Below, in pieces: positions 4,633-36,804 of a DNA stretch of 64,000 bases. Source of the stretch: a virus. Taxonomy: Duplodnaviria; Caudoviricetes. The stretch is taken from positions 18,862 through 82,861 of the IMG/VR virus record IMGVR_UViG_3300009709_000023. The stretch is one strand, 5' to 3'. Position 1 is the first letter of the stretch; every line of letters starts with the position of its first letter. The notes beneath the pieces are model-generated. The model worked only from the letters and a program-made list of their open reading frames with translations. It had not been told where the DNA came from and ran no database searches. A program made the position numbers and the translations under genes.

Positions 4633-4639
4633 ACTGGTA

Positions 4640-6583
4640 TCATTCTCCTGCGGCTCCGACGGTTTCATCCAGAGCCTGATGAACATTAACCATGTTCTTT
4701 AACTTCATCAGATTCTGACCGAGCGTGATATACGCCGTCTTAAGAGAAGCGAGGAAAGAAAAAATTGAATCGGCGTCGTTTGCGTCTGCAAGTCTATCAA
4801 TGTGAACACGAGACATAAACAAAATACGACCAAGCTTATCTACAGCTTCTTCGATGTCTGGCAAATATTCACCAATTTCGATAATGACATCTGGTACTTG
4901 AAGCAACTCTGAAATAATCGTTGCTTCTGTAGTTTGCGCATCACCAAGCTCAGCGGAGTTAGCAACGCGTGGCAAGAATGCACCATTCATACCTACGTCT
5001 TTGCTACTATCGTCTGGGACCTGACCATACTGAGGGACATTAGCATAGTTCTCATCAGTGGAGAACGCTTGCTTAGTCATATAAATTTTAGCGAACTTGG
5101 ATAGCTTGGCTTCCTTAACAAAGCTCTTAGCAACATCAGGATCGATGCCTTCCTTGATAACGAGGCGTTCCATCAAGTCTGGCTCAGAACCAACTGGAGA
5201 GCCATTAACAGCAAATTCAACTCCGTCATAGCCGATATTTAATTCATCGCTCAGAAGTTTTAATTGGTTAGCTTCACGCTTTTTCCATGCGGCATTTGTA
5301 GAGCATTCAAGCTCAAGGCTTACATCTGAGCCAAGTTTAATTACAATTGCTGTAAAAGGAATATAAATGTCGTAGCTAACACGATCATATTGACCCTGGA
5401 AATTACGGTAAGCATAAAGATGTTCAACCTTACCAGTGGCAAGATTATAAACCTTGGCTTCAATACCCAAGCTACTGAGAACTACATTGGCAGCCTGGTA
5501 AGGACCGAGGAATGTACCATCTCCTAACATAATAGTGAACGTGTCATTCATGTACAAATCTTTGAGCATAACCGGAGGGTTCATATCAAAGAGTACTTTG
5601 AGAACTTCACGACGATCTAATTCTTGGCCAACGGCGATGAAAGATTTTCCAAGGGCGTAATCACCATTAGTAAAAATAGCCATTGGAATATGATTTGATC
5701 CGTTTGCATTCATCTTAGGAATAAAAGCTTCACGAGAAGTACCATTGGCGAAAGCAACGTCATAATCCTTTCCGCCATCCAAATCAGTTACTGCTTTAAA
5801 AACACCATCAACATCATAGTTCTGAGCAGAGACGGCGACACGGTAAGTAGGTTGTTTACCGATGAAATGGTATCCGTCATCCAAAATACTATTAATCTGG
5901 ACTTCTCCCAGGCCAGCAGCTTGGTTATCTGCAGTGGCGATGGAAATGGGAACCTGGTTAGTTGCTTGGGGGAGCGCTGCCATTGACGGTGCTTTGAGCA
6001 CGTCGAAGATGGCCTTGAGTCCGAATTGCTCATCAAGGTTGTCGTAGACAGATTTTTCAGCCGAGAGTTTTTCAAAGACTTCATCCTTGACTTCATATGG
6101 AAGTTGGGCTAGGAATTCCACGAGCCGACTCCGAGACGCATACACGAATTTGCCCGTCCTGGGCGGATTCAGTAGCCAATACGTTGAAGGATTCGTGTTT
6201 ACAGTCTCGGGAATTGTCTTCGATTTTCCTAAAGCCGAAGTATCCGTAGCGCTCATTGCTAAAATGAACTGAACTGTCTTCTTCGACAATGGGAAGAATT
6301 TTTGCTGCGAGTCAATAAAAATTGAGTCAATTGGATAAACGTTATCCGAGCGTGCTACAACTGGAACATAAAGTAATTCCGCACCTGGTCGAAGAATAAA
6401 TAATCCAACTCGGACACTTGGGTCTTCTCCCATTTCATCCGAACAGTCTTTAAAGGTCAAAATGAAAGGACCCAATTCAGGAAATGACTGAAGAAATTTT
6501 GCTAAACAAATATCAGCAAATTGATCTTGTAAATCTTGATTTTGGTCACCTGGGCTCATGCCCTGATTCATACCTGGATTCAT
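4640..6583 (-). CDS. Large hypothetical, probably structural, protein (647 aa)
   Basis: Long ORF in the head cluster with KEA/KQA motifs near the C-terminus; no recognisable catalytic motif. Confidence 0.6.
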   Translation of the reverse strand: MNPGMNQGMSPGDQNQDLQDQFADICLAKFLQSFPELGPFILTFKDCSDEMGEDPSVRVGLFILRPGAELLYVPVVARSDNVYPIDSIFIDSQQKFFPLSKKTVQFILAMSATDTSALGKSKTIPETVNTNPSTYWLLNPPRTGKFVYASRSRLVEFLAQLPYEVKDEVFEKLSAEKSVYDNLDEQFGLKAIFDVLKAPSMAALPQATNQVPISIATADNQAAGLGEVQINSILDDGYHFIGKQPTYRVAVSAQNYDVDGVFKAVTDLDGGKDYDVAFANGTSREAFIPKMNANGSNHIPMAIFTNGDYALGKSFIAVGQELDRREVLKVLFDMNPPVMLKDLYMNDTFTIMLGDGTFLGPYQAANVVLSSLGIEAKVYNLATGKVEHLYAYRNFQGQYDRVSYDIYIPFTAIVIKLGSDVSLELECSTNAAWKKREANQLKLLSDELNIGYDGVEFAVNGSPVGSEPDLMERLVIKEGIDPDVAKSFVKEAKLSKFAKIYMTKQAFSTDENYANVPQYGQVPDDSSKDVGMNGAFLPRVANSAELGDAQTTEATIISELLQVPDVIIEIGEYLPDIEEAVDKLGRILFMSRVHIDRLADANDADSIFSFLASLKTAYITLGQNLMKLKNMVNVHQALDETVGAAGE

Positions 6584-6632: not shown

Positions 6633-7349
6633 TTAGCTTTCTTTTATTGTAACACATTCACAAGGCCAGCCTTGGCACTCAATACACCAATAATGACGCT
6701 TTGCTCTGTTTTTTGTACGCGTTAAAACTTGTAAATTAAATTCATTGTGTAAGCCACAAACTAACCCATCTTTGTGTTGCAAAGGAATAATATGATCCAC
6801 TTCATGTGGCTCCCCTGTTTTTTCTAAAAGTGCTTTAGATTCTTTGTAGAATTCTTCTATTACTTCTTCATCCGCCCAGTCAACAAAAGCGTTTAATTCT
6901 ACCGCCCGCCTCTTAGAATCTGCAAGAAGAAACCTCTCGGGGCACTCCTTCTTCATTCGTTCATAACTTTGTTTTTTTCTTATTCTAGCTTTTTCTTTGA
7001 AATCGGGATCATCTTTGTGTTCTTCATGGTACGCCCTGGATCTCTCTGCTGCTCTAGCCCTGTATTCCGGGTCTAATCCATATTTATTATGAAATCGAGC
7101 TAATTTCTTAGCATTAATATTTGCCCTGTACATTTCATCTGTACATAATTTTTCAAGGTGTTTTTCGTACGCTATCTGGGCTTTACGTTTGTATTCTTCA
7201 GTATCTTTATGGGTTTCGTAATGACGCTGAGAAGCAGCTTTTTTTCTAGCTCGATAAGAAGGATCATCTTTTAATCTCTCATAACGTTTATGATCTTTTT
7301 CTTTTTGTTTAGCTTTACGTTCTTCTTCGGTTAAAACTTTACGTGGCAT
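6633..7349 (-). CDS. HNH homing endonuclease
   Basis: HEVDHIIPLQ...VCGLHNEFNLQVLTRTKNRAK; Lys/Arg-rich N-terminal region. Confidence 0.85.
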   Translation of the reverse strand: MPRKVLTEEERKAKQKEKDHKRYERLKDDPSYRARKKAASQRHYETHKDTEEYKRKAQIAYEKHLEKLCTDEMYRANINAKKLARFHNKYGLDPEYRARAAERSRAYHEEHKDDPDFKEKARIRKKQSYERMKKECPERFLLADSKRRAVELNAFVDWADEEVIEEFYKESKALLEKTGEPHEVDHIIPLQHKDGLVCGLHNEFNLQVLTRTKNRAKRHYWCIECQGWPCECVTIKES

Positions 7350-7403: not shown

Positions 7404-8201
7404 TCAACAACCCGGTGGAACCTGGTTATTCCCACTCGCAATATTCACAACTTGGCCAGAACTAGTAGTAGCAACGCTTGTTGCATTGCCAGAAACACCA
7501 CCAGCCGCCGAACCATTAGCAAGCACATACATTTTTCCATACAAAATATTACTGACGTATTGGTTTGGCGTCATACCGGTAGCTCTGTCATATCCCCCCA
7601 AGCCTAGATAAGCGCCAATTGAGGCTGCTATTTTGGAGCTAAAGTATTGACTAGAGTTACCATAGTGCCATCCACTTGAAGTTTGACTAATATGTTTGTA
7701 TTTACTTTCAAGAATAGTCAGGCCCGCCAAAATTTGGTTAGAAGCGGTAGCCTGCCCTTGATACAAAGTAGTTAAGTCTGTTCCAGGTGGAACACAAAGA
7801 ATACTGGCAATATCAGGTCTAGAGATTTGAATTTCAGTTTGGCCATTTTTTTTAGATGCCCCCTGAATAAAATTCCATCCCATACACTGCAAAAGTCCAT
7901 AGGCTTGGAGGCCCTGAGCAACCAACGATTTTTGTGTGGGAGTGCCCGTTGCCAAAAGATTTTGAATCGGTTGACTATTCCAGTAATCCTTAGCCCCAGA
8001 CGAAACAGACGTAGAAATAACAGGGCCAATAGCATTGTAGCTAAAAGAACTTTCCTGTTGGACCATAGCCATGACAATGTTAGCAATATTGCTTTCATTG
8101 TTTAAAGTAGAAGTGAAATATTGACCAAGCAGATTTGTTATAATTGTCTTAACATTCTGCTTGGTAGTGGTCGTAGTACTTGATCCGGCAACCGACGCCA
8201 T
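7404..8201 (-). CDS. Lysozyme-fold / SLT-like transglycosylase, probably virion-associated
   Basis: AMVQQESSF (catalytic Glu motif) and AYGLLQ; start overlaps the stop of the beta' C-terminal gene. Confidence 0.65.
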   Translation of the reverse strand: MASVAGSSTTTTTKQNVKTIITNLLGQYFTSTLNNESNIANIVMAMVQQESSFSYNAIGPVISTSVSSGAKDYWNSQPIQNLLATGTPTQKSLVAQGLQAYGLLQCMGWNFIQGASKKNGQTEIQISRPDIASILCVPPGTDLTTLYQGQATASNQILAGLTILESKYKHISQTSSGWHYGNSSQYFSSKIAASIGAYLGLGGYDRATGMTPNQYVSNILYGKMYVLANGSAAGGVSGNATSVATTSSGQVVNIASGNNQVPPGC

Positions 8202-10027
8202 TAGTAAGCCCCGTCTTCACCTTCACCGAATTCTCGTCCCAGAATGTACGATGGAATTGGATCAGTGCTATGAATGTCGGACGAATCACCGACTGCGGCA
8301 GAATCTGTAATTGTGTCTTTAAGTCGGGTGAAAGCAAGGCGTGAAACCCAGTTTGAATCATAATTCTTCGCTGACTCCAGGCCGGGAACGATCGGAGTAA
8401 CTTTGAGACCAGAGCCAGTCACTTTCACTGTCTTGACACCTTTCTCTTCCAAGTCTTCAATGTGGTTAGCATCCAGCAAAGTACCGGGCGTTAATTCGTG
8501 GACACCTTTAGCTAAAACAGTACCTTCAGCATGGCTAACAGGAATTTCTTTAGTGCCAGTACGAAGAAATTTCTCGGCTTCTCCAACACTTACAACTTGG
8601 CCTGGCATAAAACCAGTTTGTCCTGGATCTTCGACTTGAACATATTTCAGCAGATTCTTGGCAACGATTTCAAAGTGACGGGGATCCAAGCCGCCACCAT
8701 AAATTTCACGAAGTTCGTTAGCCATATAACGACGGCCAGCCCCTAAACCCCTGAGCTGAACAAGCTTACGGGGGTTAATAACGCCTGATGACAAAGCTTG
8801 TCCTGTTTTAACTTCATCTCCAACGTCAACATTTAAAGTCTGAGCTTGAGGGACAAAGTGAGAAGTATCTTTCACATAAACATTATGGTCACCCAGCGCT
8901 GTTGTAGAGATATGAGTAATCTTCCCATTATGTTGAGCAAGCGTTGCCTCATCCTGGAAGTTTTCAGTCGGGTTACGCATCAAGTTAGAAGCTTGTTCGT
9001 ATGCATTGCCTTTACGTTCACCCACTGACGCTTTGTGCTTTGTTGACAGAATGCTCTGTGTCAAAACTTCCGAAATAGATTGGGCCGCAATGACCCCGAC
9101 GTTTTCACCAATCTCAGGAGGGAGACCGTTTCCCATCAAACCGAAACATTTAACACAAACGCCATCATGAGCTTCACAAGTCATAGCGCTCCGGCATTTG
9201 ATAAATTTGCGTCCGGATTGAGCACATTCTTTATAGTACTGATCAGTGATGAGCCTGTTAGTTTCAGCTTCATAACGACCAATGATTGATTTCTTATCTG
9301 AAACGGGGAGATTGATACCATTTTTGGTCCCGCAATCAACAATGGTTACAACTTCATGATACACAGTGGGGCCAAGTCGTTTAAACAGTGCTCCTGGCTT
9401 TGACGTAGCAAGCTGTGTCAATACGCTATTGCCACGGCCCATATAGGAAAGTGCCGTTTGCTCTGCAGGGGTCATACCCTCTGCGAATGAATGTTTAATA
9501 ACAACAGGAACAATCTCACCGCTCAAATTATTTGAAATTAAAGGGGTAGCAGTACCTGCAGCCAATTGCTTTGGATTACCCCGTGCTCCAGTTTGAGCCA
9601 TCTTTGCAGCAACAGAGCCTTTACCAACGAGATAAGCAAGGTTCTGCTTTTGTACTTTGGATTCGTATTCGGTGATGAGAGACAACAGTTCTTTATCTTT
9701 GTCGACTTGAGATTTGTTAGTATTTAGAATTTTTTGAGCTTTGAAATCAAATTCGTCGATCAGTGTAGTACGTTCTTCAGAATCATTGATATAATCAGAT
9801 AAAGGCGTAGTTGCACCAATATCTGTAGCAACGTTAAAAAATTGTTTCGCTAAATCGTTAATGGTTTCGCCTGCGCCTGGCCCACCGTGTTTCAAAATCA
9901 TATTGACAAGGCTAGATACCCCACCTTTGTCTAGAGATTTATAGGGATCAAAGTGTGCCTTAGCGGCTTCAGTTGGAAGGGAATGCTTAATGAGCAAAGA
10001 CCCAGCAGTAGTGTATTTTTGTGCCAT
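8201..10027 (-). CDS. rpoC: RNA polymerase beta' subunit, C-terminal part
   Basis: TTAG start region, MAQTGARGN, bridge helix SFAEGMT...PGALFKRL, Zn site DCGT...RSAMTC...VCVKCFG, trigger loop GVIAAQSISEVLTQ...KH, HFEIVAKNL. Confidence 0.9.
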   Translation of the reverse strand: MAQKYTTAGSLLIKHSLPTEAAKAHFDPYKSLDKGGVSSLVNMILKHGGPGAGETINDLAKQFFNVATDIGATTPLSDYINDSEERTTLIDEFDFKAQKILNTNKSQVDKDKELLSLITEYESKVQKQNLAYLVGKGSVAAKMAQTGARGNPKQLAAGTATPLISNNLSGEIVPVVIKHSFAEGMTPAEQTALSYMGRGNSVLTQLATSKPGALFKRLGPTVYHEVVTIVDCGTKNGINLPVSDKKSIIGRYEAETNRLITDQYYKECAQSGRKFIKCRSAMTCEAHDGVCVKCFGLMGNGLPPEIGENVGVIAAQSISEVLTQSILSTKHKASVGERKGNAYEQASNLMRNPTENFQDEATLAQHNGKITHISTTALGDHNVYVKDTSHFVPQAQTLNVDVGDEVKTGQALSSGVINPRKLVQLRGLGAGRRYMANELREIYGGGLDPRHFEIVAKNLLKYVQVEDPGQTGFMPGQVVSVGEAEKFLRTGTKEIPVSHAEGTVLAKGVHELTPGTLLDANHIEDLEEKGVKTVKVTGSGLKVTPIVPGLESAKNYDSNWVSRLAFTRLKDTITDSAAVGDSSDIHSTDPIPSYILGREFGEGEDGAY

Positions 10028-10053: not shown

Positions 10054-10063
10054 TGGTATAAGT
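10054..10063 (+). promoter_or_regulatory. TGGTATAAG(T) motif, putative phage promoter (also 16988, 26363, 27367, 33155, 35324, 43128, 45827, 47705)
   Basis: Nine TGGTATAAG copies, all at or next to gene boundaries upstream of plus-strand gene blocks. Confidence 0.75.
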
Positions 10064-10097: not shown

Positions 10098-10394
10098 ATG
10101 TTCTGTGCATTTCGTTGCCAATGGTTTGAAAAATCAGACGGAGTAGAACAAGCAGATGGTTTTTCCTATGCATTTCGAAGGGATGATTTGGAGCTTTGGA
10201 TTAAAACCCAAAGTAATCCAACATTCTCAGATGTGCTACAATACAGGGCTAGCAAAGTTGAGCTTGTTCGTATAACTTCTGAACTTGCTGAAAATATCTT
10301 TAGGCATCGAGTTTTTAATTGCGGTCTTGAAAATGGGGAAGCCCCTGATCTTGGACTGTTATCAGAATATAAGGCTTCCCTTGGCATCAACTAA
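10098..10394 (+). CDS. Hypothetical protein
   Basis: AGGAG RBS, first gene after the TGGTATAAGT motif. Confidence 0.6.
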   Translation: MFCAFRCQWFEKSDGVEQADGFSYAFRRDDLELWIKTQSNPTFSDVLQYRASKVELVRITSELAENIFRHRVFNCGLENGEAPDLGLLSEYKASLGIN

Positions 10395-10521
10395 CTTCAT
10401 CCCCGACATAATCACTAATCCTCTCACCAATTCCTCCGCCCCAACCCACCATTATACTTGGACTCGTGGGACCGGGTGGGGCGTTATTCCTGTAAACCCT
10501 TTTGATACAGAGAGAACTACC

Positions 10522-11976
10522 ATGGCGCAATCTACGTCTGCATCTGTCACCCCCGTTACTCCAGACCCGAATCGTCCGTATCGCCCGCCGTTGGTTGGAA
10601 CTCCTGACGTTACTATTCAGTACATCTCGGGTCAAATCCAACGAACCAGGGCATCTTCGGGTCAAGAAATTATAGTGCTTTTGACTCGCTTCCTTGAATT
10701 CGCAACGGCTAGGCCAACAGGCAGTATGACTTACTCCATGCTTGAACCTCCTCGTTGGCAGAATGCTGAAGAAGGATACCCTTTCGAATTGGTAATTTAT
10801 GGTAATAATCTACCGGCGGATTTAGCAAGCACTCAACAGGCACTTCGCCTCCTGATCAGCGGCTGTCCGGATATGATCTTTTCCAACACCATGGAAGGTC
10901 CGTCTGGAGAAAGCTCAATACCGAATATTTTCTTTACACCCGGTAGAGTCAAGTTCCTTCAAAACTTGGAGATTTTTGATACTCCATGTGGATTCGGTCT
11001 GAAGGGAAATTTCATGCTTAGGCGGTCGGCTACCAGGTATTACGCCTACCCTTTCAAGGTTCATATTGTTAAGTTATCAGACCAATCTTTGCAATTGTTT
11101 CACAGTCATATTGCGTTTAGTGGAGATCTGGAGAAGCTCATAGACAAAATGCTGGAGTACTGGGACCTAAAACTTGACAGAAGCATGATGGGGGCCGATT
11201 ATTCGTCTCTTTCTATGAACTATGATGGAGAAGATGTTTTTCTTACCCGTGGAAATTCTGTAATGAATTTTCTGCCCAACATTACTACTTCTATGTTTAG
11301 CGGCCTTTCGACAGAAGCGATTGTTAATTGTCTCAAAACCCTGAGGTTTTGCACGTCCGAGTCTTTGATTTACGCCCTGGGAAAGTTAGAACCAAACAAC
11401 CAACTACGTAAAGCAATTAGCACTCAGGTCAGTGGAAATACTGTACGTGGTGCTGACTATCACTATCCGTCCCCCCTAGATGAAGAAGCCAGACGAGAGG
11501 GGTTTAAAACATGGCTCGTTAGTTTGCTTCAGCAACGTTCCTTAGGCCCTCGTAATTTGCACGAGGATCCTGCCATGAAATGGGGCCTGGGGTATATCTC
11601 TGAATTGGAAAGGAGCAAGCAAACGGTCGGTGTCGTTGAAAACCGAATCAGTAACGCCGTCGGTAAAGAGGTATATAATAAGTTGGTAACACCGAAGTCC
11701 AAATTGGCGGTATTGGACGAGTACATCGCCCGTATCGAAGCTCAAGGTCTGGATTTCATGCACATCTCTGAAGGCCGGCTCGAACTTGATTTCATCGAGT
11801 TTGCTCAAGAAAAAGGCTTACCACTTCCTGATGAAGTCATAAACAAGGAAGAATTGGTTAGCAAACCTGAAGAGAAAGCTTCGATGCTACTCGTTGAAGC
11901 TGGAAGTAGCACTAAGTGTGATGTTAAGGATAACCCGGCTCCAATATGGGGTAAGGTTAAGGTAAGCGCCATTTAG
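10522..11976 (+). CDS. Large hypothetical protein (likely start 10522; track start 10285)
   Basis: Long ORF followed by a terminator; no recognisable motif. Confidence 0.65.
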   Translation: MAQSTSASVTPVTPDPNRPYRPPLVGTPDVTIQYISGQIQRTRASSGQEIIVLLTRFLEFATARPTGSMTYSMLEPPRWQNAEEGYPFELVIYGNNLPADLASTQQALRLLISGCPDMIFSNTMEGPSGESSIPNIFFTPGRVKFLQNLEIFDTPCGFGLKGNFMLRRSATRYYAYPFKVHIVKLSDQSLQLFHSHIAFSGDLEKLIDKMLEYWDLKLDRSMMGADYSSLSMNYDGEDVFLTRGNSVMNFLPNITTSMFSGLSTEAIVNCLKTLRFCTSESLIYALGKLEPNNQLRKAISTQVSGNTVRGADYHYPSPLDEEARREGFKTWLVSLLQQRSLGPRNLHEDPAMKWGLGYISELERSKQTVGVVENRISNAVGKEVYNKLVTPKSKLAVLDEYIARIEAQGLDFMHISEGRLELDFIEFAQEKGLPLPDEVINKEELVSKPEEKASMLLVEAGSSTKCDVKDNPAPIWGKVKVSAI

Positions 11977-12001: not shown

Positions 12002-12037
12002 AGCTAGGCCTGATGTATTTACGGCCTAGCTTTTTTT
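12002..12037 (+). terminator. Intrinsic terminator
   Basis: AGCTAGGCC / GGCCTAGCT stem followed by a T-run. Confidence 0.75.
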
Positions 12038-12054: not shown

Positions 12055-13965
12055 ATGCCCTACGAAACTGCCCATCCGGTTGAACATGAACATCAGCTCA
12101 AACCTGGGACTGAAATTCTGTTTACCCGTCAACGCCATGAAGCTGAGCGTATGGGCTTACATTGGGATTACCGACTGGTAGTTGGGAATTTAGCTTACAG
12201 TTGGGCTACTAAAAAACCAATGCCAGAGCCAGGTAAAAGCATCGTTCTCTTTGAGCAACCGATTCATGACAAAGACTATGCCCTGAGTCCAAAAGTTGTT
12301 ATCCCTACTGGTAGTTATGGTGCTGGTGTTACTTACCTTGACTTTGTACGCAAAGCAAAGATCGGGGACAGTAGCACACAAAAACAAATGACAATCGTCA
12401 CCCATGACGGTGAGAAGTATTTGCTAAAGCATATTCCTGATACTCAATGGGGAGAGAAAGCTTGGTTGTTCCGTAATCTTGGGACAACAGGTAATAAGTA
12501 TTTGGAAAAGGCTGCTAAGCAAACACAGACTCAAAAACAAACTCCTCTTCAACCGCATCAAATTCGTGCGCTTGAAAAGTTGGAAGATGAGGGTGGTCTT
12601 GTAATGAATCACAGCACGGGCTCAGGGAAAACCCGAGTTATGCTTGAGGCTATTCGCCGCGCCCAACAAAAAGATAAAAACGCAAGAGTATTTATGGCTA
12701 CGCCAGCTTCATTACTACATAACGTAGATAAAGAAATTAAAAAGCATGGCATCCCCATTGATAAAAAGCGACTCGACTTATATTCATTCCAGAAAGCGAC
12801 TAGAAATGCAGATCAGCTTCGTAAAAATAAATACGCATTAGCAGTCGTGGACGAAGCCCATGGTCTCCGCAATGAAAGCACAAAGCGAACCCAAGAACTT
12901 CGAGACATTATAGAAGGATCTGATCAACGTCTTTTAGCTACTGCAACGTCTAACTACAATGCTATTAGCGATATGTCAACTTTGGTTAACATTGCCGCTG
13001 CTGATAAAGTGTTGCCTGAATCTAAGCGAGATATGTATGATAAATATGTGGAGACCTACAAAAAGCCTCGGGGACTCATCAGCACCATTTTACGTCATCA
13101 AGCCGACGAAGGCCAGCGGTTGAGAAACAAAAAGAAACTTCAGAGTGTCCTGGGTAAATACGTTGATTATTATGATACTAAGGACTCCGCTAATGGCCGT
13201 AGCCATTTCCCTAAAAAGACAGAGGAAACAATTGAAACGGAAATGTCTCCTGAACAAATGAAGTATTACAAATACGTTGAAGGAGACTTGCCTCTTTTAC
13301 TTAAATTTAAAATTCGTCACAATCTTCCATTGGATAAAAAGGAAAAGGCAAGCTTAAATAGTTTCTCCACAGGGGTGCGCCAAGCCTCCAATTCGTATAG
13401 GCATTTGCATCAGCATGGGGAAGATCTGCCGTACACACCAAAAATTGAAGCCGCTACTAAAAAACTTCAAGAAGCGATTAAGGCTAACCCACGCCATAAA
13501 GCCTTGGTGTATTCTAATTATCTTGACGCCGGTTTGAACGAATACTCCAACAAGCTTAATAAACTTGGGATTAAGCACGGTAAATACACAGGGGAACTTT
13601 CCAAGGAAGAGAAGCATAAACTAGTCGAAGATTACAACAAAGGTAAGCTTCCAGTGATGCTCATTTCTTCAAGTGGTTCTGAAGGTCTTGACACGAAAGG
13701 TACAAGGCAAATTCAAATTCTTGAACCGCATTTTAACAAGAGCAAAATTAAGCAGGTAATTGGTCGTGGAGTTCGTTACAATTCCCATGAGCATTTACCA
13801 GAAAAAGAAAGAGAGGTTCATGTTGAACATTATCTTTCAACATATCCTAAGAGTCATTTCGGTAAAACGCCTTATAGTATTGATAAATATTTGAGTGAAA
13901 ATGCTGAAGACAAAGACGAACTATTTAACGAAGTAAACGGACTAATGCGTGAGAACAATGAATAA
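12055..13965 (+). CDS. LigD-type 3'-phosphoesterase (PE) domain fused to an SF2 (SNF2-like) helicase
   Basis: N-terminal RHEAERMGLHWDYRL...SWATKK...IHDKDYA...IPTGSYGAG matches the LigD PE signature. Linker NKYLEKAA. Then HSTGSGKT, DEAH, ATAT, SEGLD, QVIGRGVR. Confidence 0.8.
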   Translation: MPYETAHPVEHEHQLKPGTEILFTRQRHEAERMGLHWDYRLVVGNLAYSWATKKPMPEPGKSIVLFEQPIHDKDYALSPKVVIPTGSYGAGVTYLDFVRKAKIGDSSTQKQMTIVTHDGEKYLLKHIPDTQWGEKAWLFRNLGTTGNKYLEKAAKQTQTQKQTPLQPHQIRALEKLEDEGGLVMNHSTGSGKTRVMLEAIRRAQQKDKNARVFMATPASLLHNVDKEIKKHGIPIDKKRLDLYSFQKATRNADQLRKNKYALAVVDEAHGLRNESTKRTQELRDIIEGSDQRLLATATSNYNAISDMSTLVNIAAADKVLPESKRDMYDKYVETYKKPRGLISTILRHQADEGQRLRNKKKLQSVLGKYVDYYDTKDSANGRSHFPKKTEETIETEMSPEQMKYYKYVEGDLPLLLKFKIRHNLPLDKKEKASLNSFSTGVRQASNSYRHLHQHGEDLPYTPKIEAATKKLQEAIKANPRHKALVYSNYLDAGLNEYSNKLNKLGIKHGKYTGELSKEEKHKLVEDYNKGKLPVMLISSSGSEGLDTKGTRQIQILEPHFNKSKIKQVIGRGVRYNSHEHLPEKEREVHVEHYLSTYPKSHFGKTPYSIDKYLSENAEDKDELFNEVNGLMRENNE

Positions 13966-14941
13966 GTATTTAGAAAAAATTGCAGAAGATGATGAAGAAA
14001 AAAAGCCGGTGAATGCCTTTGGAAAACTTGGGATAGGTTACTTAGGGGCTTCTCTTGGACTCGGTGCGAGTGTCGTTACAAATAAACCTTTGACAAGGGA
14101 TATCATACATCAAAGTAACAACGAGCATGGTATTTCTGACCATGGTACTGTCAAGAAATTTATGCGAGATAATAACTTTAATAAGCATAATATGACGTTG
14201 AATCATCGTATGCATATTACGAAAAAACTTCCTGAGAGTTTCCAGTATCTTCATCAAAATCACCATAGTCCCGCAGAGCTTACTGATCCCCATACAGGCA
14301 GACATATTCTGTTAGGTATGAGGGATAAAAAAACCGGAAAACTTCGTAATTTAGATGTTGCAATGCATGAACTTGGTCATGCTAAAGATTTCCGCACGCA
14401 TACTGAACTAAAGCATAAAGCACAGATTATTGGAAATACTAAAGGTAATCATGCAGCTATGTTGGGAGTCGCTGCAATGTCCAACGAAGACACTAGACAC
14501 TACGCTCCTCTTGTCGCTGCCGTTCCGGGTGCTATTGTCCTTCGTTCGGAAGCTGCGGCAAATTATCATGCTTATCATGGTATTAAAGCTCACAAAGGAG
14601 CTAAGGCGGCAAATAAATTTTTAACTCGTATGGTTCCTAAACAAATGGCAGGGTATGTTGCAGGAACTCTCGGCCCTGCGGCTGGTTTATATGGTGCCAA
14701 TAAACTTATTGACTATGTTCATAAAAAGCGTGGTATTGATAAGCAAGCTGAAATGTCCGACATGGAAGCCGCTCGTGAATTTCATCATGCTGAAGAAGAT
14801 GATGTCAAGAAATACGAAGAGGCTAAAAAGACGGCAAAAAATCCTAAGCTATTAAAGGCTATTAACTATGCCCTTCCAGAAGAAAAGATCCATGCTCGTT
14901 TGTTTGGTGAAGCATTGAAAGACGAAGAAAAAAGTGAATAA
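13958..14941 (+). CDS. Zinc metallopeptidase-like protein with NKYLEKIA tag (likely start 13958)
   Basis: HELGH motif with downstream SEAAAN (third-ligand Glu candidate); Gly-rich hydrophobic segments. Confidence 0.65.
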   Translation: MNKYLEKIAEDDEEKKPVNAFGKLGIGYLGASLGLGASVVTNKPLTRDIIHQSNNEHGISDHGTVKKFMRDNNFNKHNMTLNHRMHITKKLPESFQYLHQNHHSPAELTDPHTGRHILLGMRDKKTGKLRNLDVAMHELGHAKDFRTHTELKHKAQIIGNTKGNHAAMLGVAAMSNEDTRHYAPLVAAVPGAIVLRSEAAANYHAYHGIKAHKGAKAANKFLTRMVPKQMAGYVAGTLGPAAGLYGANKLIDYVHKKRGIDKQAEMSDMEAAREFHHAEEDDVKKYEEAKKTAKNPKLLKAINYALPEEKIHARLFGEALKDEEKSE

Positions 14942-15098
14942 GTATCTTGAAAAGCTTGCAGTAAGACTCCATTTATACGTTCATTCTCAAGATGAAACTA
15001 AGAAGAGGTGGGTGGAGGAAGGAAAGTCTGTTCCAGAAGGATATGTAAAGGCTGGTCCTACTTTCTATCGCCGCAAAGGTCAAGGTAAAAAGAAATGA
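14934..15098 (+). CDS. 54-aa basic protein with NKYLEKLA tag (not in the ORF track)
   Basis: GTG-start hand translation MNKYLEKLAVRLHLYVHSQDETKKRWVEEGKSVPEGYVKAGPTFYRRKGQGKKK; overlaps both neighbours. Confidence 0.7.
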   Translation: MNKYLEKLAVRLHLYVHSQDETKKRWVEEGKSVPEGYVKAGPTFYRRKGQGKKK

Positions 15099-16012
15099 AT
15101 TTGATTTCCAGAAAAGAAGCTAAAGCGCAAGGATTAAAATTTTATTTCACTGGTAAACCATGCAAGCACCGGCATGTTTGTCCTAGACGCGTTTCTAGCA
15201 AGTGCTGTACAGGCTGTGAAAAACAGTTTTATGATAAAAACAAAACTGAAATACTAAAGTCACGAGTTGAATATTCTAAACGCAATAAAAATAAAATTTC
15301 TGAATACCAAAAGAAATATCGAGAAAACAACAAAAATAGAACTTCCGAATATCTAACTGACTATTTTCAAAAAAATAAAGAAGAAATTTACCTTCAGCGT
15401 CGTCAATATATAGAAAGAAATAAAGCCTATTTTTTTAACTGGCATTCTGAATATAGAGAAAAACATAGAGACATATTCAATGTTCGTTCATCGATAAGAA
15501 GGGCTATTAAATTACAGGCAATACCTACTTGGGCAAATAAAACAGAAATACATGAATTTTATAAAGATGCAGTTCGTATAAGTTATGAAACTGGTGTTAA
15601 ATACAATGTTGATCATATTGTCCCATTACAATCAGATTTTGTTTGTGGATTACACTGGGAAGGAAATTTGCAAATTCTAACAAAAACTGAAAATCTCTCA
15701 AAAAGCAATAGACATTGGCCTGACATGCCAGATACTTCTGACCCAGAAATTAAACACTTAGTAAAACAATTTAAAAAAATGAATAAATATTTATCAAAAA
15801 TAGCAGAAGCATATGATGTTGTAGAAGGTAATAACGGGGCGTCTATTGGTCGAAAAGGCGGCTCTACTCTAGATGGTAAAGACCAAAAAACAACTCCTGC
15901 CTCTGTACGTAACAGAATGCTCGAAGCTGGGAGGGCCAGTGATCCGGACCAACCTGTAAATATGGGTTCAGTGACTGGTGGCTATAGCGATCCAGGCATT
16001 CTGGGCTCCTAA
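15095..16012 (+). CDS. HNH endonuclease read in frame into a 77-aa NKYLSKIA-tagged protein (internal ATG 15779)
   Basis: FYFTGKPCKHRH...C..C; YNVDHIVPLQSDFVCGLHWEGN; WPDMPDTSDPE; then MNKYLSKIAE. Confidence 0.8.
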   Translation: MNLISRKEAKAQGLKFYFTGKPCKHRHVCPRRVSSKCCTGCEKQFYDKNKTEILKSRVEYSKRNKNKISEYQKKYRENNKNRTSEYLTDYFQKNKEEIYLQRRQYIERNKAYFFNWHSEYREKHRDIFNVRSSIRRAIKLQAIPTWANKTEIHEFYKDAVRISYETGVKYNVDHIVPLQSDFVCGLHWEGNLQILTKTENLSKSNRHWPDMPDTSDPEIKHLVKQFKKMNKYLSKIAEAYDVVEGNNGASIGRKGGSTLDGKDQKTTPASVRNRMLEAGRASDPDQPVNMGSVTGGYSDPGILGS

Positions 16013-16022
16013 AAATAAGATC

Positions 16023-16970
16023 ATGAACAAATACTTGACCAAATTGGCTAGTGACGGAATTATCAAAACCGAACATGGTGAAAAAATTCCTTATGAGCGC
16101 CACAAATATGTGGAGAAAGATTGGTCACATCTAGAAAATCCTGTCGGGTCTAATAAATTCGATGGGGCTCATTTCTTTTTAGTTGTTCAACCAGACGGAA
16201 CATTTAAGTATTATTCCCGTAGAGAGAGCGTTAAGGGGCATCATCCTGAACGTTCTGCTCAAATTCCTCATCTCAACGCCAAGCCTTTGCCTGAATACGC
16301 TGGTGATGTGCTCTCTACAGAGTTGATCCATACTGGCTTTTATAAGAACAAGAAAGAATCCCACCCAAAAGTATCAGGGATTCTGAATTCTCTCAAGGAC
16401 CGGGCTATTGCAACTCAAAAAGAAACTGGTCCCGTCCGTGCCGTCCTCCTAGATGTCAAGGATCATAACCTTCCAACTTTCGGATCGAAGATTGATTACC
16501 TAAAAAAGTTTGAACAAGCATATGGTAATTCAGACGTCCTTTACACCCCTAAATTTGTTGAGGGCAAAGAAAACATCAACAAGTACCTTCAGCAAGTTTC
16601 GTCTAAAGGCAGCGAAGGTATCATCGTAACAGATAAGAATATTCCTGAATCAGAGAACGTTCGTTACAAAGTTAAAAACTACAATACTTATAACTTGAAG
16701 GTTATCGGGTTTCAACAAGAAGTAGACATTCATGGTAATCTTAAAAAGTCCATGGGTGCCCTCCTCCTGGCCGACGCGACTGGACGGTTCGTTGGCAAAG
16801 TCGGAACAGGATTTGATCGTAAGACACGGATAGAATCCTGGAATAATCAACCCCTTTGGATTGGTCGGCAAATCCAAGTTAAAGCATATCCACCTAGTAA
16901 ACATATGGGTCATATCCGTTTTCCTATTTATAACGGTGAACCTGATGGTCAACTTGACACAATAATTTAG
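16023..16970 (+). CDS. ATP-dependent DNA ligase with NKYLTKLAS tag (likely start 16023)
   Basis: KFDG adenylation motif, EGIIV, VKNY, OB-fold GKVGTGFD and RFPIY. Confidence 0.9.
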   Translation: MNKYLTKLASDGIIKTEHGEKIPYERHKYVEKDWSHLENPVGSNKFDGAHFFLVVQPDGTFKYYSRRESVKGHHPERSAQIPHLNAKPLPEYAGDVLSTELIHTGFYKNKKESHPKVSGILNSLKDRAIATQKETGPVRAVLLDVKDHNLPTFGSKIDYLKKFEQAYGNSDVLYTPKFVEGKENINKYLQQVSSKGSEGIIVTDKNIPESENVRYKVKNYNTYNLKVIGFQQEVDIHGNLKKSMGALLLADATGRFVGKVGTGFDRKTRIESWNNQPLWIGRQIQVKAYPPSKHMGHIRFPIYNGEPDGQLDTII

Positions 16971-17052
16971 TCCACCGTTGTTCAATTTGGTATAAGAAAA
17001 GTATAGAGAGAGGATCTATTCTCTACTAACCCTTAATCAACCAGGAGCAATA

Positions 17053-18566: not shown

Positions 18567-19718
18567 TTAAAGCTTTGCGTGTTCTTCAATAATCAAAGGA
18601 GTGTTTTCTTTGATGTGACCATTCTTTAGAGCTTTGAGTGCATCAAGCTCAGTTTTGAAAGTAACAGGTTTTTGTTCAGAATCTGGTTCAGTCAAATATG
18701 AACTGCCCACAATTGCTTCGTGGCCCGGAGCCATCATTGAAATACCGATACCTTTACGATAATCATACGCATGAGCTTCTGGCAATAACTTTTCACGAGC
18801 TTCATTAATTGCCTCGGGAGTCATAGGCGTGTGAATAGACAAAGCGTCACCATCAAAGTCACCGGAATATAAAGCAAGGTGAAGAGGATTAATACCTAAA
18901 GTTTTGCCTTCGACAGGAACTGGGTAGTGAGCAGTAACGTTTGTACGCATTAATGTAGGCGCACGATTCAGAATTACTGGAATCTGCTTAATTAATTTAT
19001 TAAAAGAATTAACTGCAGCAGGTCCACGACTCTCAATTTCTTTTTTAGCTCGAATCAGATCGAAACCTTGCTGAACTAAATCACGCATAATGTGGTACTC
19101 GTACAGAGTCCACAACATGTCTTTGGGAACAGCTACTTCATTGAAACCAAGATTAGCTTCCGCTCGAATCGTCGCACGGCCTGAGAAGTCTTGTTTACGA
19201 CTCAGAAGTTTGGATTGGAAGTAACCGCCTTTTGGGCCGTACTTACCAGCGATTTGAGCAATGAAACCATTTAAATCTTTACCACGAGCGTATCCACTGA
19301 TTGCATCGCCGAGCCCAAAAATAGCTTTGGCACCATCGTATAGCGCTTTGCGTTCTGGAACAAGAGCGTGGGGTTCCAAGGTGTGCCCTAGCTCTTTCAG
19401 ATTATTATTCACCGACATATGATCTCGGTAGAGATAGTTTACATCGGCAAATTCGATACGGTTACCCCCTGTTTGAACCGGAGGCCGGACAATCGGAGGA
19501 ACAACTGGCATGTGCCTAAGAATGAATGCATGCTCGGGTTTAATACCAAGCTTGCGTAACCCCGCCAGGTATTTCAGACGTTTAACAATGCCATCTTTTT
19601 TCGATTTGGATTTAGTGGATTGGTATTCTTTTTGAAGGTCTTTAATTTGCTTTTCGACATCGATGTCCCCAAGCATAGATTCAAAAGCTAATCCACCAAC
19701 TTTAACTTCGTCTGTCAT
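18567..19718 (-). CDS. rpoC: RNA polymerase beta' subunit, catalytic middle part
   Basis: MPVVPPIVRP, LLSRKQDFSGRATI, LNRAPTL, catalytic GDFDGD. Confidence 0.92.
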   Translation of the reverse strand: MTDEVKVGGLAFESMLGDIDVEKQIKDLQKEYQSTKSKSKKDGIVKRLKYLAGLRKLGIKPEHAFILRHMPVVPPIVRPPVQTGGNRIEFADVNYLYRDHMSVNNNLKELGHTLEPHALVPERKALYDGAKAIFGLGDAISGYARGKDLNGFIAQIAGKYGPKGGYFQSKLLSRKQDFSGRATIRAEANLGFNEVAVPKDMLWTLYEYHIMRDLVQQGFDLIRAKKEIESRGPAAVNSFNKLIKQIPVILNRAPTLMRTNVTAHYPVPVEGKTLGINPLHLALYSGDFDGDALSIHTPMTPEAINEAREKLLPEAHAYDYRKGIGISMMAPGHEAIVGSSYLTEPDSEQKPVTFKTELDALKALKNGHIKENTPLIIEEHAKL

Positions 19719-19956: not shown

Positions 19957-22900
19957 TTATTCCAAGTGACTGACGTCCAGAGATTCTTCTCCGCCCATCA
20001 GATGATTATCTTCTTCTTCATCCGGCTCATCTTCAATTTCTGTAGAAGCAGCAAGATTAAGAGTTTTAACTAGTTTACCTGATTTAGTATCGACTAGATG
20101 GTATGTACTACCTTTGGCTTTTTTTACGCCCATCGCGCCCGATGTAATCCCATTGAACTCATTCTTGTTTAAACCAAGAAGAGTACGGATTGGCCGTTCG
20201 AAACTAGGATTGGCGATTGGTTCATATAAGGTATAATGAGACCAACGTTGGCCACGAACACCGCCAGTAATAGAGTTATCAAACATACCACCTTTAGATG
20301 GTTCAAGGCCACGTGGAGTTAACATCGTAGAGTCTTTGATTTCACCATTACTCATGCCAACAACTTCATCATCAGTTAAAGGGGCAGCAGTAATTTTACC
20401 ATCTTGCATTTTAGCGTTAATGCCGGAACCCTTCAGGTAGTCAAAGAACTTCTGCGTTGCAAAAGTCATCTTAGGTTTAGGCAGAGGCTGCCCCATGCGG
20501 AATTTTGCCCAGTAATCGGAATTCTCTTCTGATTTAAGCGTTGCAATTTCCCGAAGATTCTTACGGGCGTTAGAACCAAGTAAGCCAAGTACTTCCATGT
20601 AGCCAACAGCTTTCGAGCCCTCTTCACCACCTTTTGTCGGTTGGAGAACATTATCGTATGAACCTGTATTACGGGCTGACCAGTTTTGATCGGTTGTTTT
20701 ATATAGTTTCAAAAAGTACTGCGGACCAGTCAAGATTTTGCCAAGATTCTTATTTGTAGTTGGATCAACCATTTCTTCAGAATCTTCCAAGCCATGAGCC
20801 GCAAGTTCATTTTTCATATCCTGAATATTATTTTTTTTACTGAAGTTATGCAGATAATACGGTTTCCCAGTTTTCTGAGCAATCTTTGCTGCTGCAGTCT
20901 CCATAAGCTGCCCCAGGTTAATACGAGAAGTAACTGAGGCTGGATTCAAAAGAATATCAGCAGGCTTACCAGACGCTACATTGTAAGGCATCTTATCGTC
21001 AGGGAGAATCAAGGATACAATACCTTTGTTACCATGAAGACCAGTCAGTTTATCACCTACTTCAAGCGGTTTAACAGAGCGAAGAATAATACGGTAGTCT
21101 TTACCTTCGGTGTGAGTATCAACAACCTCTCCGTTCTCATCATGAGTCCAATATTCGACTACACACCGGTAAGGGGAAACCAATGTTTTGTGTAAACGAC
21201 CGAGGATCAAATCTTCAGCACTTGGTTCACGTTTTTCAAGAACAACATAAACAGGATCCCCATGATGCAAAATAGCACCGACTTTGGCAAAACCTTTATC
21301 ATCCAGGTTATCAAGCTGTGCCCGAGAAAATCGGTTAGGGAATAGAGATCTAACTTGAGCTTTCTTCATGATTACACCGTCTTGGACAGCGTAGTCAACC
21401 TTGTATGCGTGATGACTTTTAAGACCATCAGCACAAGATTGAGAAATAACTAAACCGTCCTCATGGTTATAGCCCCGATATGGCATATAAGCAACATTAA
21501 GGTTTTTACCAAGAGAGAGAACGCCATTTTTCGTGTAGTTGGAATCCAAAAGATCTTGTCCTGCCTTAACTGTATCCCCTTCTTTCACTAGAGGTTCAGC
21601 AAGATCCAGGAAGCCTTTAGCATTGAACGGTAAGTTACGAACAACTTCATGTTTGTGGACTTTGCCATTCTCATCTTTGATATGAATTTGATTTGGGGTA
21701 ACTTTGGTTACCGTACCATTAGTAGGAGACAAAGGAGTAATAATTTTCCCAACCCAACGTACATAAGGAAGTCCGGCCTTGTTTACAGTCTGAACAAGAG
21801 GCTGTTCACGATCAACTAAGGACAGTGCTTGGGTCAGTGCCTTTGACGCCATGGAGAGGCGGCCAGGGTGATTACTATTGATGAAGGGAACCATATTCGT
21901 CGTAATTGTATACAACGAAGTTGCATCATTTAACCAATAATCGACATCTTGTCGTGGGACCATTTTGAAATGACCTTTGACTTGAGCATGGACTATTTTG
22001 TCGTTTTCCTGATTTGGAAATCCGATGGTGTGAGACATCATTTCACCAACGCTTAACCACATACCTTTACCGGTTTTATCAACGACACGAGCGTAGAGAT
22101 TACCTTCTTTATCACGACCTGACGATAAAGTAAAACGTTGATCAATACCAGCACTTCCGGATTCAGGAGTACGGTTAGGGTCGATAATACCCAGGTGAGA
22201 AGGGTCAATGTCACGAGCAGTAAGTGGCACACCTTCAGGCGATGCAATACCACCTTCATCAGGACCCATGACCGTGACCTTACCAACAGACTCAATACTT
22301 TCCAGAGGGTTAGTTTCCGAAAGCGTTGAAACGAGCGTAGATTGAAGCAAATAATTAGAAAGGAATTTATTGTAAGGCTTTGGAGCGATGACCGAACGAA
22401 GCTTTGGCTTTTCCTTATCCATTTTCTCCAATTGATAAGCAAGTTTAGAATTCAACTGCTTGACCATTTGGTGCTTCTCAAAACGTGTGTTGAGATAGTC
22501 CGGGAGACTCTGAACCTTTTTGAACTGGAGAGAATCTCGGTTATCCTCTGGACGTTTACCAGAGTGTGTATCAGCTAGATTCTTCATAGCTAATAACAAA
22601 GTTTCGCCTGTGACATGGGTGAAATCTTTACCCAATGTAATATTGGTTGTTTGGGGAGCCAATGTAGAATTCTGCAATGCTTGTTTGAGTTCTACAATCA
22701 CTTCCTCCGGGGAAGGGTTTGGCTTTTGCAATGACCTATTAACAAGTCGAGTATACAAAGACTGAAGAATTTTATCTTCCTTGCCTTTCGTTGCCGCTAC
22801 GTTCGCTTCCCAAAGAGCGGGAGAAAAATACTTTTCGGCTTCTTTGGGCCCAATGCCAAATACTTTGGTCAGAAGGGGGGCAACTGGGACATAAGACGAC

Positions 22901-23403
22901 TTGATATTGAGGTTGAATAACAACTTCTCGGGATCAAGAGTAATGTAAAAACTTTGGCCTTTAGCCGTGTTGAAGTGAGATTCGAGTACGCCAGTTGGAC
23001 GTCGACGTGTGTAAACGCCCGGCCGGAGCTGAAGCATGTTTGAAACGTTATAGTTATTGCCTTTATACACAAGGGTATGTTTGCCGGTATACGAAAAAGA
23101 ATCCATTAATGCGAAGTTTTTTTCCTCATCTACCAATTTGCCGGTAGCTTTATCGTAAAGTCTCAAGTCACCTCGAATAGGGTACGTCAAACTCTTTGAA
23201 CGAAGAATAGCGTCTTTTTCATCAAGCTGACTGAAATGCTTCTCGTCAGGGTGAACATTGGTAAGTTCAAGCCGATAGTTTTTGGTTTCAATCGGGAATT
23301 GTTTCTGAAGGCCTTCGACAAGGGCCTCATCCTTTTTCGCATTCAGAGAATCCGGAGATGTAAAAATAGGAGTAACATCCAGAGAATTTAACGGCTGTGG
23401 CAT
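19957..23403 (-). CDS. rpoB: RNA polymerase beta subunit fused to the beta' N-terminal segment
   Basis: TPESG, GYNHEDG, GDKLTGLHGNKG, NPASVTSRINLGQ, GPQYFLKL, ARNTGSY..QPTKGG, GYMEV; tail GGMFDNSITGG...WSHYTLYEPIANP resembles the beta' N-terminus. Confidence 0.92.
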   Translation of the reverse strand: MPQPLNSLDVTPIFTSPDSLNAKKDEALVEGLQKQFPIETKNYRLELTNVHPDEKHFSQLDEKDAILRSKSLTYPIRGDLRLYDKATGKLVDEEKNFALMDSFSYTGKHTLVYKGNNYNVSNMLQLRPGVYTRRRPTGVLESHFNTAKGQSFYITLDPEKLLFNLNIKSSYVPVAPLLTKVFGIGPKEAEKYFSPALWEANVAATKGKEDKILQSLYTRLVNRSLQKPNPSPEEVIVELKQALQNSTLAPQTTNITLGKDFTHVTGETLLLAMKNLADTHSGKRPEDNRDSLQFKKVQSLPDYLNTRFEKHQMVKQLNSKLAYQLEKMDKEKPKLRSVIAPKPYNKFLSNYLLQSTLVSTLSETNPLESIESVGKVTVMGPDEGGIASPEGVPLTARDIDPSHLGIIDPNRTPESGSAGIDQRFTLSSGRDKEGNLYARVVDKTGKGMWLSVGEMMSHTIGFPNQENDKIVHAQVKGHFKMVPRQDVDYWLNDATSLYTITTNMVPFINSNHPGRLSMASKALTQALSLVDREQPLVQTVNKAGLPYVRWVGKIITPLSPTNGTVTKVTPNQIHIKDENGKVHKHEVVRNLPFNAKGFLDLAEPLVKEGDTVKAGQDLLDSNYTKNGVLSLGKNLNVAYMPYRGYNHEDGLVISQSCADGLKSHHAYKVDYAVQDGVIMKKAQVRSLFPNRFSRAQLDNLDDKGFAKVGAILHHGDPVYVVLEKREPSAEDLILGRLHKTLVSPYRCVVEYWTHDENGEVVDTHTEGKDYRIILRSVKPLEVGDKLTGLHGNKGIVSLILPDDKMPYNVASGKPADILLNPASVTSRINLGQLMETAAAKIAQKTGKPYYLHNFSKKNNIQDMKNELAAHGLEDSEEMVDPTTNKNLGKILTGPQYFLKLYKTTDQNWSARNTGSYDNVLQPTKGGEEGSKAVGYMEVLGLLGSNARKNLREIATLKSEENSDYWAKFRMGQPLPKPKMTFATQKFFDYLKGSGINAKMQDGKITAAPLTDDEVVGMSNGEIKDSTMLTPRGLEPSKGGMFDNSITGGVRGQRWSHYTLYEPIANPSFERPIRTLLGLNKNEFNGITSGAMGVKKAKGSTYHLVDTKSGKLVKTLNLAASTEIEDEPDEEEDNHLMGGEESLDVSHLE

Positions 23404-36240: not shown

Positions 36241-36804
36241 ATGCTCCCCGAAGATCTTGCTGAACCTTACATTGATGACGACCAAATTCTTGAAATGGAA
36301 TCCTATATGGATGATTTGGTTTCTCATATGCTTTCGGAGACAGAGGATGGCCAGGAACCGGTTACGTTCTATCGATCCAGAATGGTCGATGCTATTATGT
36401 CTGTAGGCGAATTACTGGATTTGATCCCCCAATTGACAGGGAAAGAATCCAAAGCGGAAGCTAAAAGAATGTCCAAAATTCTACTTTCGATGTGCGATCT
36501 TCTAGATTTCACTTTATTGATGGCTCATGCATTCGAGACAGGTGTTCCAGATGCAGAAATTCTCGAAGCAGAGACTAATAGTGGCATTATTGAAATTCAA
36601 ACTAACGCTACAATTTGTGCCATGTCGTTACTCGATGCAGTTAACGCACTTGGTTTCAATTTCTTCGTAGAAAGAAACTCTGAAAATATAGATGGAGAAA
36701 TTGTTTCTTCAGAGATTCTTGGTATGTTGGCGGGTTTGTGTAAACTCTGCGAACATTTACAAGTAGATCTCTACGATGTAATGTATTCCCGGATTACTAA
36801 ATGA
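36241..36804 (+). CDS. Acidic hypothetical protein
   Basis: TGGTATAAT upstream; coupled to the helicase gene. Confidence 0.6.
   Translation: MLPEDLAEPYIDDDQILEMESYMDDLVSHMLSETEDGQEPVTFYRSRMVDAIMSVGELLDLIPQLTGKESKAEAKRMSKILLSMCDLLDFTLLMAHAFETGVPDAEILEAETNSGIIEIQTNATICAMSLLDAVNALGFNFFVERNSENIDGEIVSSEILGMLAGLCKLCEHLQVDLYDVMYSRITK

Follow-up and report, generated by a model that had tools for sequence, protein, structure and literature searches.

A tagged cassette of LigD-type phosphoesterase, Snf2-family translocase and minimal DNA ligase in an uncultured large phage: a putative end-healing and sealing pair that may be directed to the head

LigD-type end healing is known from bacterial and archaeal non-homologous end joining, and not from phages. 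The 3'-phosphoesterase (PE) domain responsible has been seen in structures of bacterial LigD and stand-alone archaeal enzymes (3p43, 3p4h, 5dmp; Pseudomonas aeruginosa, 3n9b), and in LigD it is paired, sometimes fused, with an ATP-dependent ligase. Here we describe a cassette at positions 12055-16970 of a stretch of viral DNA from the IMG/VR collection (record IMGVR_UViG_3300009709_000023), which encodes a predicted PE domain joined to a Snf2-family ATPase, a minimal ATP-dependent DNA ligase and several accessory proteins, and whose members share a short peptide tag. The window, as we call the stretch analysed, is 64,000 bp long and corresponds to bases 18862-82861 of a single 82,861-bp viral record judged to be about 47% complete. 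It comes from a large, uncultured phage, a relative of Salmonella phage Arash that encodes its own multisubunit RNA polymerase (RNAP).

The phage PE has the fold and six catalytic residues of the bacterial and archaeal enzymes, and is likewise paired, sometimes fused, with an ATP-dependent ligase. Unlike the Ku-LigD system, the cassette has no primase-polymerase (AEP) domain by Pfam, the primase of the window being of the DnaG/Toprim type. Ku (PF02735) is missing from the window, as a preliminary description of this DNA had remarked, and a search extended to the whole 82,861-bp record (~47% of the genome) gave no match either. The phage ligase also differs from LigD in being a divergent minimal two-domain enzyme nearer to the Chlorella-virus-type ligases, and the phage PEs differ from cellular LigD in forming a subfamily of their own, in carrying the tag and in sitting beside a Snf2 ATPase.

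Enzymes that enter the host with phage DNA include the virion polymerases of N4 and phiKZ. Such delivery is already established for the T4 internal proteins, Alt, P1 DarB and polyvalent proteins (PMC3012670, PMC9026906, PMC5512222). In T4 the decapeptide MKTYQEFIAE is a capsid targeting sequence (CTS; PMC9026906), and as in the phage studied here a short peptide is common to unrelated, mostly basic proteins (IPI-III and Alt), with variable cargo behind a constant tag (PMC9026906, PMC3012670). Unlike the T4 CTS, the present tag also occurs at internal and C-terminal positions, has no conserved Glu after its Ala and includes large DNA enzymes among its putative cargo. Polyvalent proteins deliver Snf2 ATPases, zincin-like peptidases and ADP-ribosyltransferase-like domains with the invading DNA, P1 DarB being a head-borne Snf2-methylase; neither a LigD PE nor a DNA ligase is mentioned there as cargo (Iyer et al. 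2017, PMC5512222). The cassette recalls them in its Snf2 ATPase, in a protein with an HExxH motif and, in relatives, in a weakly Tpt1/PARP-like tagged protein, but it consists mostly of separate tagged genes instead of one giant polypeptide, although fusions of two or three modules exist. Snf2-like ATPases attached to multisubunit RNAPs are represented by vaccinia NPH-I (D11), which is packaged in the virion with the polymerase, and by bacterial RapA; the likeness of the phage enzyme to these is limited to the ATPase core, and neither known enzyme is fused to a PE. In encapsulins, a short cargo-loading peptide at either end of unrelated enzymes directs their loading into an HK97-fold shell. 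The phage tag has this either-end placement on unrelated enzymes in common with the encapsulin peptides, with no likeness in sequence.

The cassette is laid out as follows, in window coordinates:

10054..10062, plus strand: promoter-like box TGGTATAAG upstream of the plus-strand unit, one of nine exact copies in the window
12002..12037, plus strand: terminator-like hairpin with 9-bp arms and a T7 tail, read from the sequence, between the upstream gene and the PE-ATPase gene
12055..12489, plus strand: predicted LigD-type 3'-phosphoesterase domain, amino acids (aa) 1-145
12493..12516, plus strand: internal NKYLEKAA tag between PE and ATPase
12520..13965, plus strand: predicted Snf2-family ATPase/translocase
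13958..14941, plus strand: tagged protein of 327 aa containing an HELGH (HExxH) motif plus a segment of glycine-zipper type; the start of the gene overlaps the ATPase stop
14934..15098, plus strand: tagged 54-aa open reading frame (ORF; VNKYLEKLAV), conserved in relative L005
15095..15778, plus strand: HNH homing-endonuclease insertion (phrog_26577, E 1.6e-26; phrog_1035, E 4.4e-13)
15779..16012, plus strand: tagged 77-aa protein (MNKYLSKIAE)
16023..16970, plus strand: tagged, predicted minimal ATP-dependent DNA ligase, 315 aa
16988..16996, plus strand: next TGGTATAAG box, start of the following unit

The corresponding ORFs run from 12055-13965 (636 aa), 13949-14941, 14934-15098, 15095-16012 and 15978-16970, and their positions in the preliminary description were confirmed on re-reading.

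The explanation that we favour, with a probability of about 0.55, is that the cassette combines a healing and sealing pair with a polymerase-companion translocase and accessory proteins, all tagged for head targeting. The PE would remove 3'-phosphates or 3'-ribonucleotides, leaving a 3'-OH, and the ligase would then seal the healed nick or break. Together they would be an obligate pair, in effect a 'split LigD' that lacks Ku and a polymerase domain, which would have settled on both sides of the gene for a Snf2-type double-stranded DNA translocase, itself a putative conserved companion of the phage RNAP, and become fused in some cases to the translocase or to each other; small accessory proteins would complete the cassette. 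The eight-residue peptide N-K-Y-L-E-K-I/A-A would serve as a portable head-targeting and processing signal, in the manner of the T4 CTS or an encapsulin cargo peptide, by which the tagged enzymes would be loaded into proheads, cut apart at their tags and carried into the next host with the DNA. Homology, fold, conserved catalytic residues, co-occurrence, gene order, fusions, and the statistics and distribution of the tag are observed here; what the enzymes do, whether they are packaged and cut, and when and on what substrate they act are inferred.

The preliminary description had recognised LigD phosphoesterase residues in the N-terminal ~140 aa of the 636-aa protein, and both fold and active site bear this out. 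Against the Pfam model LigD_N (PF13298), aa 1-145 scored 29.1 bits (E 1.2e-6), below the curated cut-off of 31.1 bits, and TIGR02777 was likewise missed (28.9 against a cut-off of 144); a precomputed PF13298 match is present in many relatives, and homology was established through solved structures instead. Searches of the PDB with phmmer retrieved archaeal and P. aeruginosa PE structures (E 3e-7 to 1e-4), and a profile of 19 relatives matched 3p43 over the whole domain (E 2e-10; positions 4-125 of 143 against residues 26-147 of 152). An AlphaFold2 model of the PE reached a pLDDT of 87, and its top seven Foldseek matches in the PDB were all LigD PE structures (probability 1.00, TM 0.54-0.80). 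H28, H36, D38, R40, H71 and Y75 correspond to P. aeruginosa H42, H48, D50, R52, H84 and Y88, and are invariant, as is the motif G86-x-Y88-G89-x-G91, in 19-21 relatives with identities down to 45%. Judged by sequence and modelled fold, aa 1-145 are a genuine LigD-type 3'-phosphoesterase homologue, which looks active from the conservation of its catalytic residues. That the PE is a decayed remnant, or the fusion a product of misassembly or an erroneous frameshift, would fit the LigD_N score just under its cut-off; it is nevertheless highly improbable, given the invariance of the catalytic residues, the confident fold model and the recurrence of the fusion. The PE-tag-ATPase arrangement is also found in an 85%-identical protein of another sample and in several other lineages, and is therefore no artefact of assembly.

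A profile search of 1.84 billion representatives placed the phage PEs in a subfamily of about 100 clusters at 50% identity (E <=1e-30), separated from cellular LigD by a gap in score from 137 to 87 bits. The clusters are metagenomic and phage-specific. In nearly all of the subfamily members listed, the PE lies at or near the N-terminus; behind it come the tag, or a short xEKxA motif, and a variable C-terminal cargo. A tblastn search of 50,697 deposited phage genomes with the PE returned no match, no PHROG covering it was found, and searches of the literature found no description of a phage LigD PE or of the tag peptide; the author of the preliminary description had known of no account of this packaged combination.

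Evidence for a functional unit comes from the survey of gene neighbourhoods that had been proposed with that description. IMG/VR was scanned with aligned PE-ATPase proteins, yielding 79 loci, the six-frame ORFs of which were searched with the window proteins. After removal of duplicates 71 distinct loci remained; 23 contain both PE and ligase, 48 contain neither and none contains one alone. The order PE-ATPase-ligase is kept in 19 of the 20 loci that have all three, within 3-6.5 kb, and the trio is thus a conserved neighbourhood. In L071, L072, L085 and L019 the two are found with each other but apart from the ATPase, and in the first three of these loci they are side by side. Direct PE-ligase fusions were seen in four clusters of the profile search (P0152, P0175, P0197 and P0221) and in locus L070, and a 1214-aa PE-ATPase-ligase fusion (P0158) is encoded on two phage-like contigs of 50-200 kb. 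This strict co-occurrence, together with the fusions, indicates that PE and ligase are a functional pair, very probably one that heals and seals ends; that the translocase works together with them is somewhat more likely than not, and we hold it with less assurance. The label 'end-healing and ligation kit' given in the preliminary description therefore suits the PE and ligase, which are strictly paired, sometimes fused and flank the ATPase, and is moderately supported for the ATPase.

The ligase begins at ATG 16023 (MNKYLTKLAS), and an intact minimal ATP-dependent enzyme of nucleotidyltransferase and OB domains is predicted. It matches phrog_114 (E 4e-22), and a ligase profile matches PDB ligases with E-values of 5e-12 to 3e-7; as a single sequence it scores below the curated cut-offs of both Pfam ligase models, and the phage collection gave distant matches only. 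Motifs I (KxDG), Ia (SRR), III, IV (EG) and V (KxK) are invariant in sets of 22 and of 13 relatives, and the earlier view that a minimal ligase with the same tag ends the operon is upheld. In one lineage (L004, L007, L008 and L010-L014) the ligase is lengthened at its N-terminus by 150 aa that carry a tag and weakly match a helix-hairpin-helix; before the core of the enzyme stands another tag, which is often degenerate.

Both lobes of the ATPase pass the Pfam cut-offs (SNF2-rel_dom, 53.5 bits against 24.9; Helicase_C, 54.5 bits against 23.5). Its closest solved relatives in a profile search of the PDB are SsoRad54 (E 1.4e-17), Rad54, vaccinia NPH-I and DDM1, with NPH-I third in that search (E 6e-16) and first among single-sequence matches (E 3.8e-7), while PADLOC and NCBIfam returned generic Snf2 matches only. 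What had been described as an intact SF2 helicase joined to the PE through the tag is indeed so joined, and is more exactly a predicted Snf2/Rad54-family translocase. The ATPase gene adjoins the RNAP beta' gene in about 40 loci. In distant, Arash-like loci that lack PE and ligase, including Arash itself (gp216, gp217), it directly follows the gene for the beta' C-terminal piece. Arash gp217, the homologue of the ATPase (41% identity), was detected together with RNAP beta and beta' in the Arash virion proteome (PMC10585845), a list of 116 proteins that is not stringent. The adjacency to beta', the co-detection in Arash virions and the likeness to NPH-I suggest that the ATPase is first of all a companion of the polymerase.

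These links raise the alternative of a module that serves transcription. Here the Snf2 ATPase would recycle RNAP or release transcripts, as RapA and NPH-I do, while the PE would trim RNA-DNA hybrids or primers at their 3'-ribonucleotide ends. The ligase would seal ribo-terminated nicks, and the substrates would be RNA-primed or R-loop intermediates, not damage to an entering genome. Ribo-terminated nicks are said, from the work of the Shuman laboratory, to be the preferred substrate of LigD-type ligases. Such a module would account for the ATPase gene abutting that of beta' in loci without PE and ligase, for the rank of NPH-I among the PDB matches, for the position of the cassette between RNAP genes and for a second, untagged Snf2 gene in the replication module (31365-33137). 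It would account less readily for the pairing of PE and ligase away from the ATPase, and the closest Snf2 structures include Rad54-type repair translocases; overall we consider it improbable. Strict PE-ligase pairing and a polymerase-associated Snf2 motor point to an undescribed form of protection or processing of phage DNA ends, possibly a counter-defence, which could include answering nucleases that leave 3'-blocked ends.

The tag that joins these proteins has the consensus (M)-N-K-Y-L-E-K-I-A, with conservation ending abruptly after the Ala. In the 636-aa protein it is present in frame as GNKYLEKAAK at aa 146-155, and in this genome every member of the cassette carries it, including the PE-ATPase and the ligase. 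It heads the HExxH protein, two small proteins, the ligase and five small basic proteins of the head module; at internal positions it separates the PE from the ATPase, and the HNH insertion from the 77-aa protein. Of the five tagged head-module genes, one is found directly before that of the protease, and the other four lie between the scaffold and major capsid protein genes. Across the loci, 131 matches to the tag were found in 13,354 ORFs compared with about one in shuffled sequences, 93 of them N-terminal and 38 internal or C-terminal, on some 30 unrelated families of cargo. The exact MNKYLEKIA coding pattern occurs in only 53 IMG/VR stretches, mostly on contigs already found by the ATPase search, and the tag is to all appearances confined to this phage clade. 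Its codons vary synonymously, which shows selection at the level of the peptide; a DNA-level element was considered and rejected on that ground, and because the peptide is kept at N-terminal, internal and C-terminal positions.

Three features suggest a role for the tag in the head. Besides its presence in head-module genes, its cargo is basic throughout (net charge of +5.6 against -1.2 per 100 aa, p 4e-5), and it resembles the CTS, T4 IPII and IPIII starting with MKTYQEFIAE against MNKYLEKIAE in the phage studied here (6 of 10 identical). From these, a head-targeting and processing signal is the best reading and a plausible one. Sites of the form [LIMVF]-x-K-x-A are also enriched (39 against 15 expected) and are concentrated in head proteins. 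In most PE proteins of the clade the PE domain is followed by the tag or by its shortened form xEKxA, and unfused ATPases of the clade begin with the tag. Stand-alone PEs in L018, L027 and P0163 end with the tag, suggesting that the peptide works at either end of a protein, and in longer proteins tags also separate modules (for example L010, L005 and P0162). If the tag is a capsid-loading signal at either end, the loading of enzymes into the capsids of phages unrelated to T4 may become possible, and the swapping of injected cargo between phages would also be explained. Among tagged proteins of relatives, those at L008:3-437(-), L100:138-917(-) and L005:9340-10008 have a Y-H-G-T/S motif; the first has weak Tpt1/KptA and PARP matches (E 4e-4 and 5e-3) and recalls Alt, the packaged ADP-ribosyltransferase of T4.

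Several observations weigh against the explanation that we favour. Most relatives of the ligase (295-305 aa) lack the tag, and so do the RNAP subunits of this phage, although RNAP subunits are the most abundant virion enzymes in Arash. The N-terminus of Arash gp217 is untagged, as is that of the helicase of Pseudanabaena phage PA-SR01; proteins of Arash can thus be associated with its virions without a tag. No cultured phage with the tag or the PE was found in searches of the phage collection, in which two N-termini, those of Arash gp217 and the PA-SR01 helicase, were read. On the plus strand, the cassette is preceded by a TGGTATAAG box of the kind also found before primase, helicase and nuclease genes, while head and RNAP genes lie on the minus strand and the box never precedes head genes. 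The residue after the Ala of the tag varies, with Glu in 15 of 95 tags, and cleavage of the T4 gp21 type, by the prohead protease after the Glu of I/L-x-E, was rejected for this reason. Tag-mediated fusions join the PE to many different neighbours, and the PE-ATPase fusion may be a polyprotein-style concatenation and not a specific partnership. The oldest and widest link of the ATPase is to RNAP beta', which may make it a transcription factor as much as a repair helicase. Lastly, for single sequences LigD_N and both ligase models stay under their Pfam cut-offs.

Part of this evidence would suit an intracellular repair and replication module, made early or midway through infection along with the replication genes, acting on targets such as nicks whose 3' ends had been left blocked by host nucleases or lyases, and not carried in the virion. 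The tag would then dock its bearers on a phage hub, or serve for cleavage alone, perhaps by the cassette's own tagged HExxH protein. The strand and TGGTATAAG box shared with the primase, helicases and PD-(D/E)XK nuclease, the untagged ligase relatives and RNAP subunits, and the tags between modules of longer proteins, as at a processing site, would all be expected on this view, which we regard as possible though on the unlikely side. It sits less easily with five tagged, small, basic proteins inside the head module, with the resemblance of the tag to the T4 CTS and with the detection of the Arash ATPase homologue in virions; a tag that ends a stand-alone PE would make little sense as a site that only separates modules.

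Returning to head targeting, we put packaging of the tagged proteins at roughly even odds from what their sequences suggest. Co-injection, as the preliminary description had it, is plausible, the tag being what points to it. Action of the enzymes on the entering genome before phage genes are expressed is doubtful by comparison, and circularisation of the genome, also proposed there, would be a putative further role. The full version is a virion-borne DNA repair kit, in which PE, translocase and ligase would be packed in the capsid through the eight-residue peptide, cut apart and injected, and would heal and seal nicks and breaks of the entering DNA, either already present or inflicted by host nucleases, ahead of gene expression; it is rather unlikely.

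The plus-strand cassette is wedged between minus-strand RNAP genes, beyond which lies the head module:

8201..10027, minus strand: RNAP beta' C-terminal piece (RNA_pol_Rpb1_5, E 2e-16), divergent from the cassette
18567-19718, minus strand: RNAP beta' N-terminal piece, convergent with the cassette
19957-23403, minus strand: RNAP beta, convergent with the cassette
genome 14899-15792: major capsid protein gene, head module

When the phage collection was searched with the ATPase and RNAP beta, matches came from Arash, PA-SR01 and the Vibrio phages D181, D148 and D69; Arash and the three Vibrio phages are the nearest cultured relatives, with RNAP beta 51-53% identical. The TGGTATAAG box occurs exactly nine times in the window (10054, 16988, 26363, 27367, 33155, 35324, 43128, 45827 and 47705), always on the plus strand and upstream of plus-strand genes, which comprise the cassette and replication genes including primase, helicases and nuclease. 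It looks like an extended -10-type promoter class, without copies at the minus-strand head and RNAP genes. The copy at 16988, after the ligase stop, is consistent with a transcription unit that ends at the ligase. A 563-aa ORF upstream (10285-11976) was considered as a further member of the cassette and rejected, being separated by the hairpin and matching no family. Besides the second Snf2 ATPase, products of the replication module (31365-33137, 36801-38423, 57715-58644 and 59264-62143) are a DinG/XPD-like helicase, a nuclease of the PD-(D/E)XK type and a primase fusion of the DnaG type.

Among the accessory proteins, the HExxH protein matches only viral hypothetical clusters, with a weak structural likeness to zincin peptidases (M56, M78 and SprT-like; TM <0.4), and a Pfam scan matched it to no zincin or other peptidase family. 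It is often the fusion partner of the PE in relatives, and could be a peptidase that cuts at tags. The HNH insertion sits between two small tagged genes, continues in frame into the 77-aa gene and is missing from the equivalent position in L005, a relative with 92% identity; another phrog_26577-like domain is encoded at 6633-7349(-). At 13958-13965 and 14934-14941 (ATGAATAA and GTGAATAA) the upstream TAA stop falls within the first codons of the tag, implying tight translational coupling, and a one-base shift would fuse the neighbours through the tag.

The head module lies beyond the beta' C-terminal piece and contains a protease-like gene (625-2115), an acidic scaffold-like protein and several small genes besides the major capsid protein. 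In a 340-aa head-module protein of no known family (window 2886-3905(-)), [LIMVF]-x-K-x-A occurs five times where 0.5 would be expected, and no other protein of the genome is as strongly enriched. The scaffold-like protein and its 212-aa neighbour (genome 16672-17310(-) and 18332-19477(-); L087:2673-3311 and 4333-5478) have repeated G-V/F-D-F/V-x-x-A-x-x-L-V-K motifs, which might be docking modules for the capsid protein or the tag.

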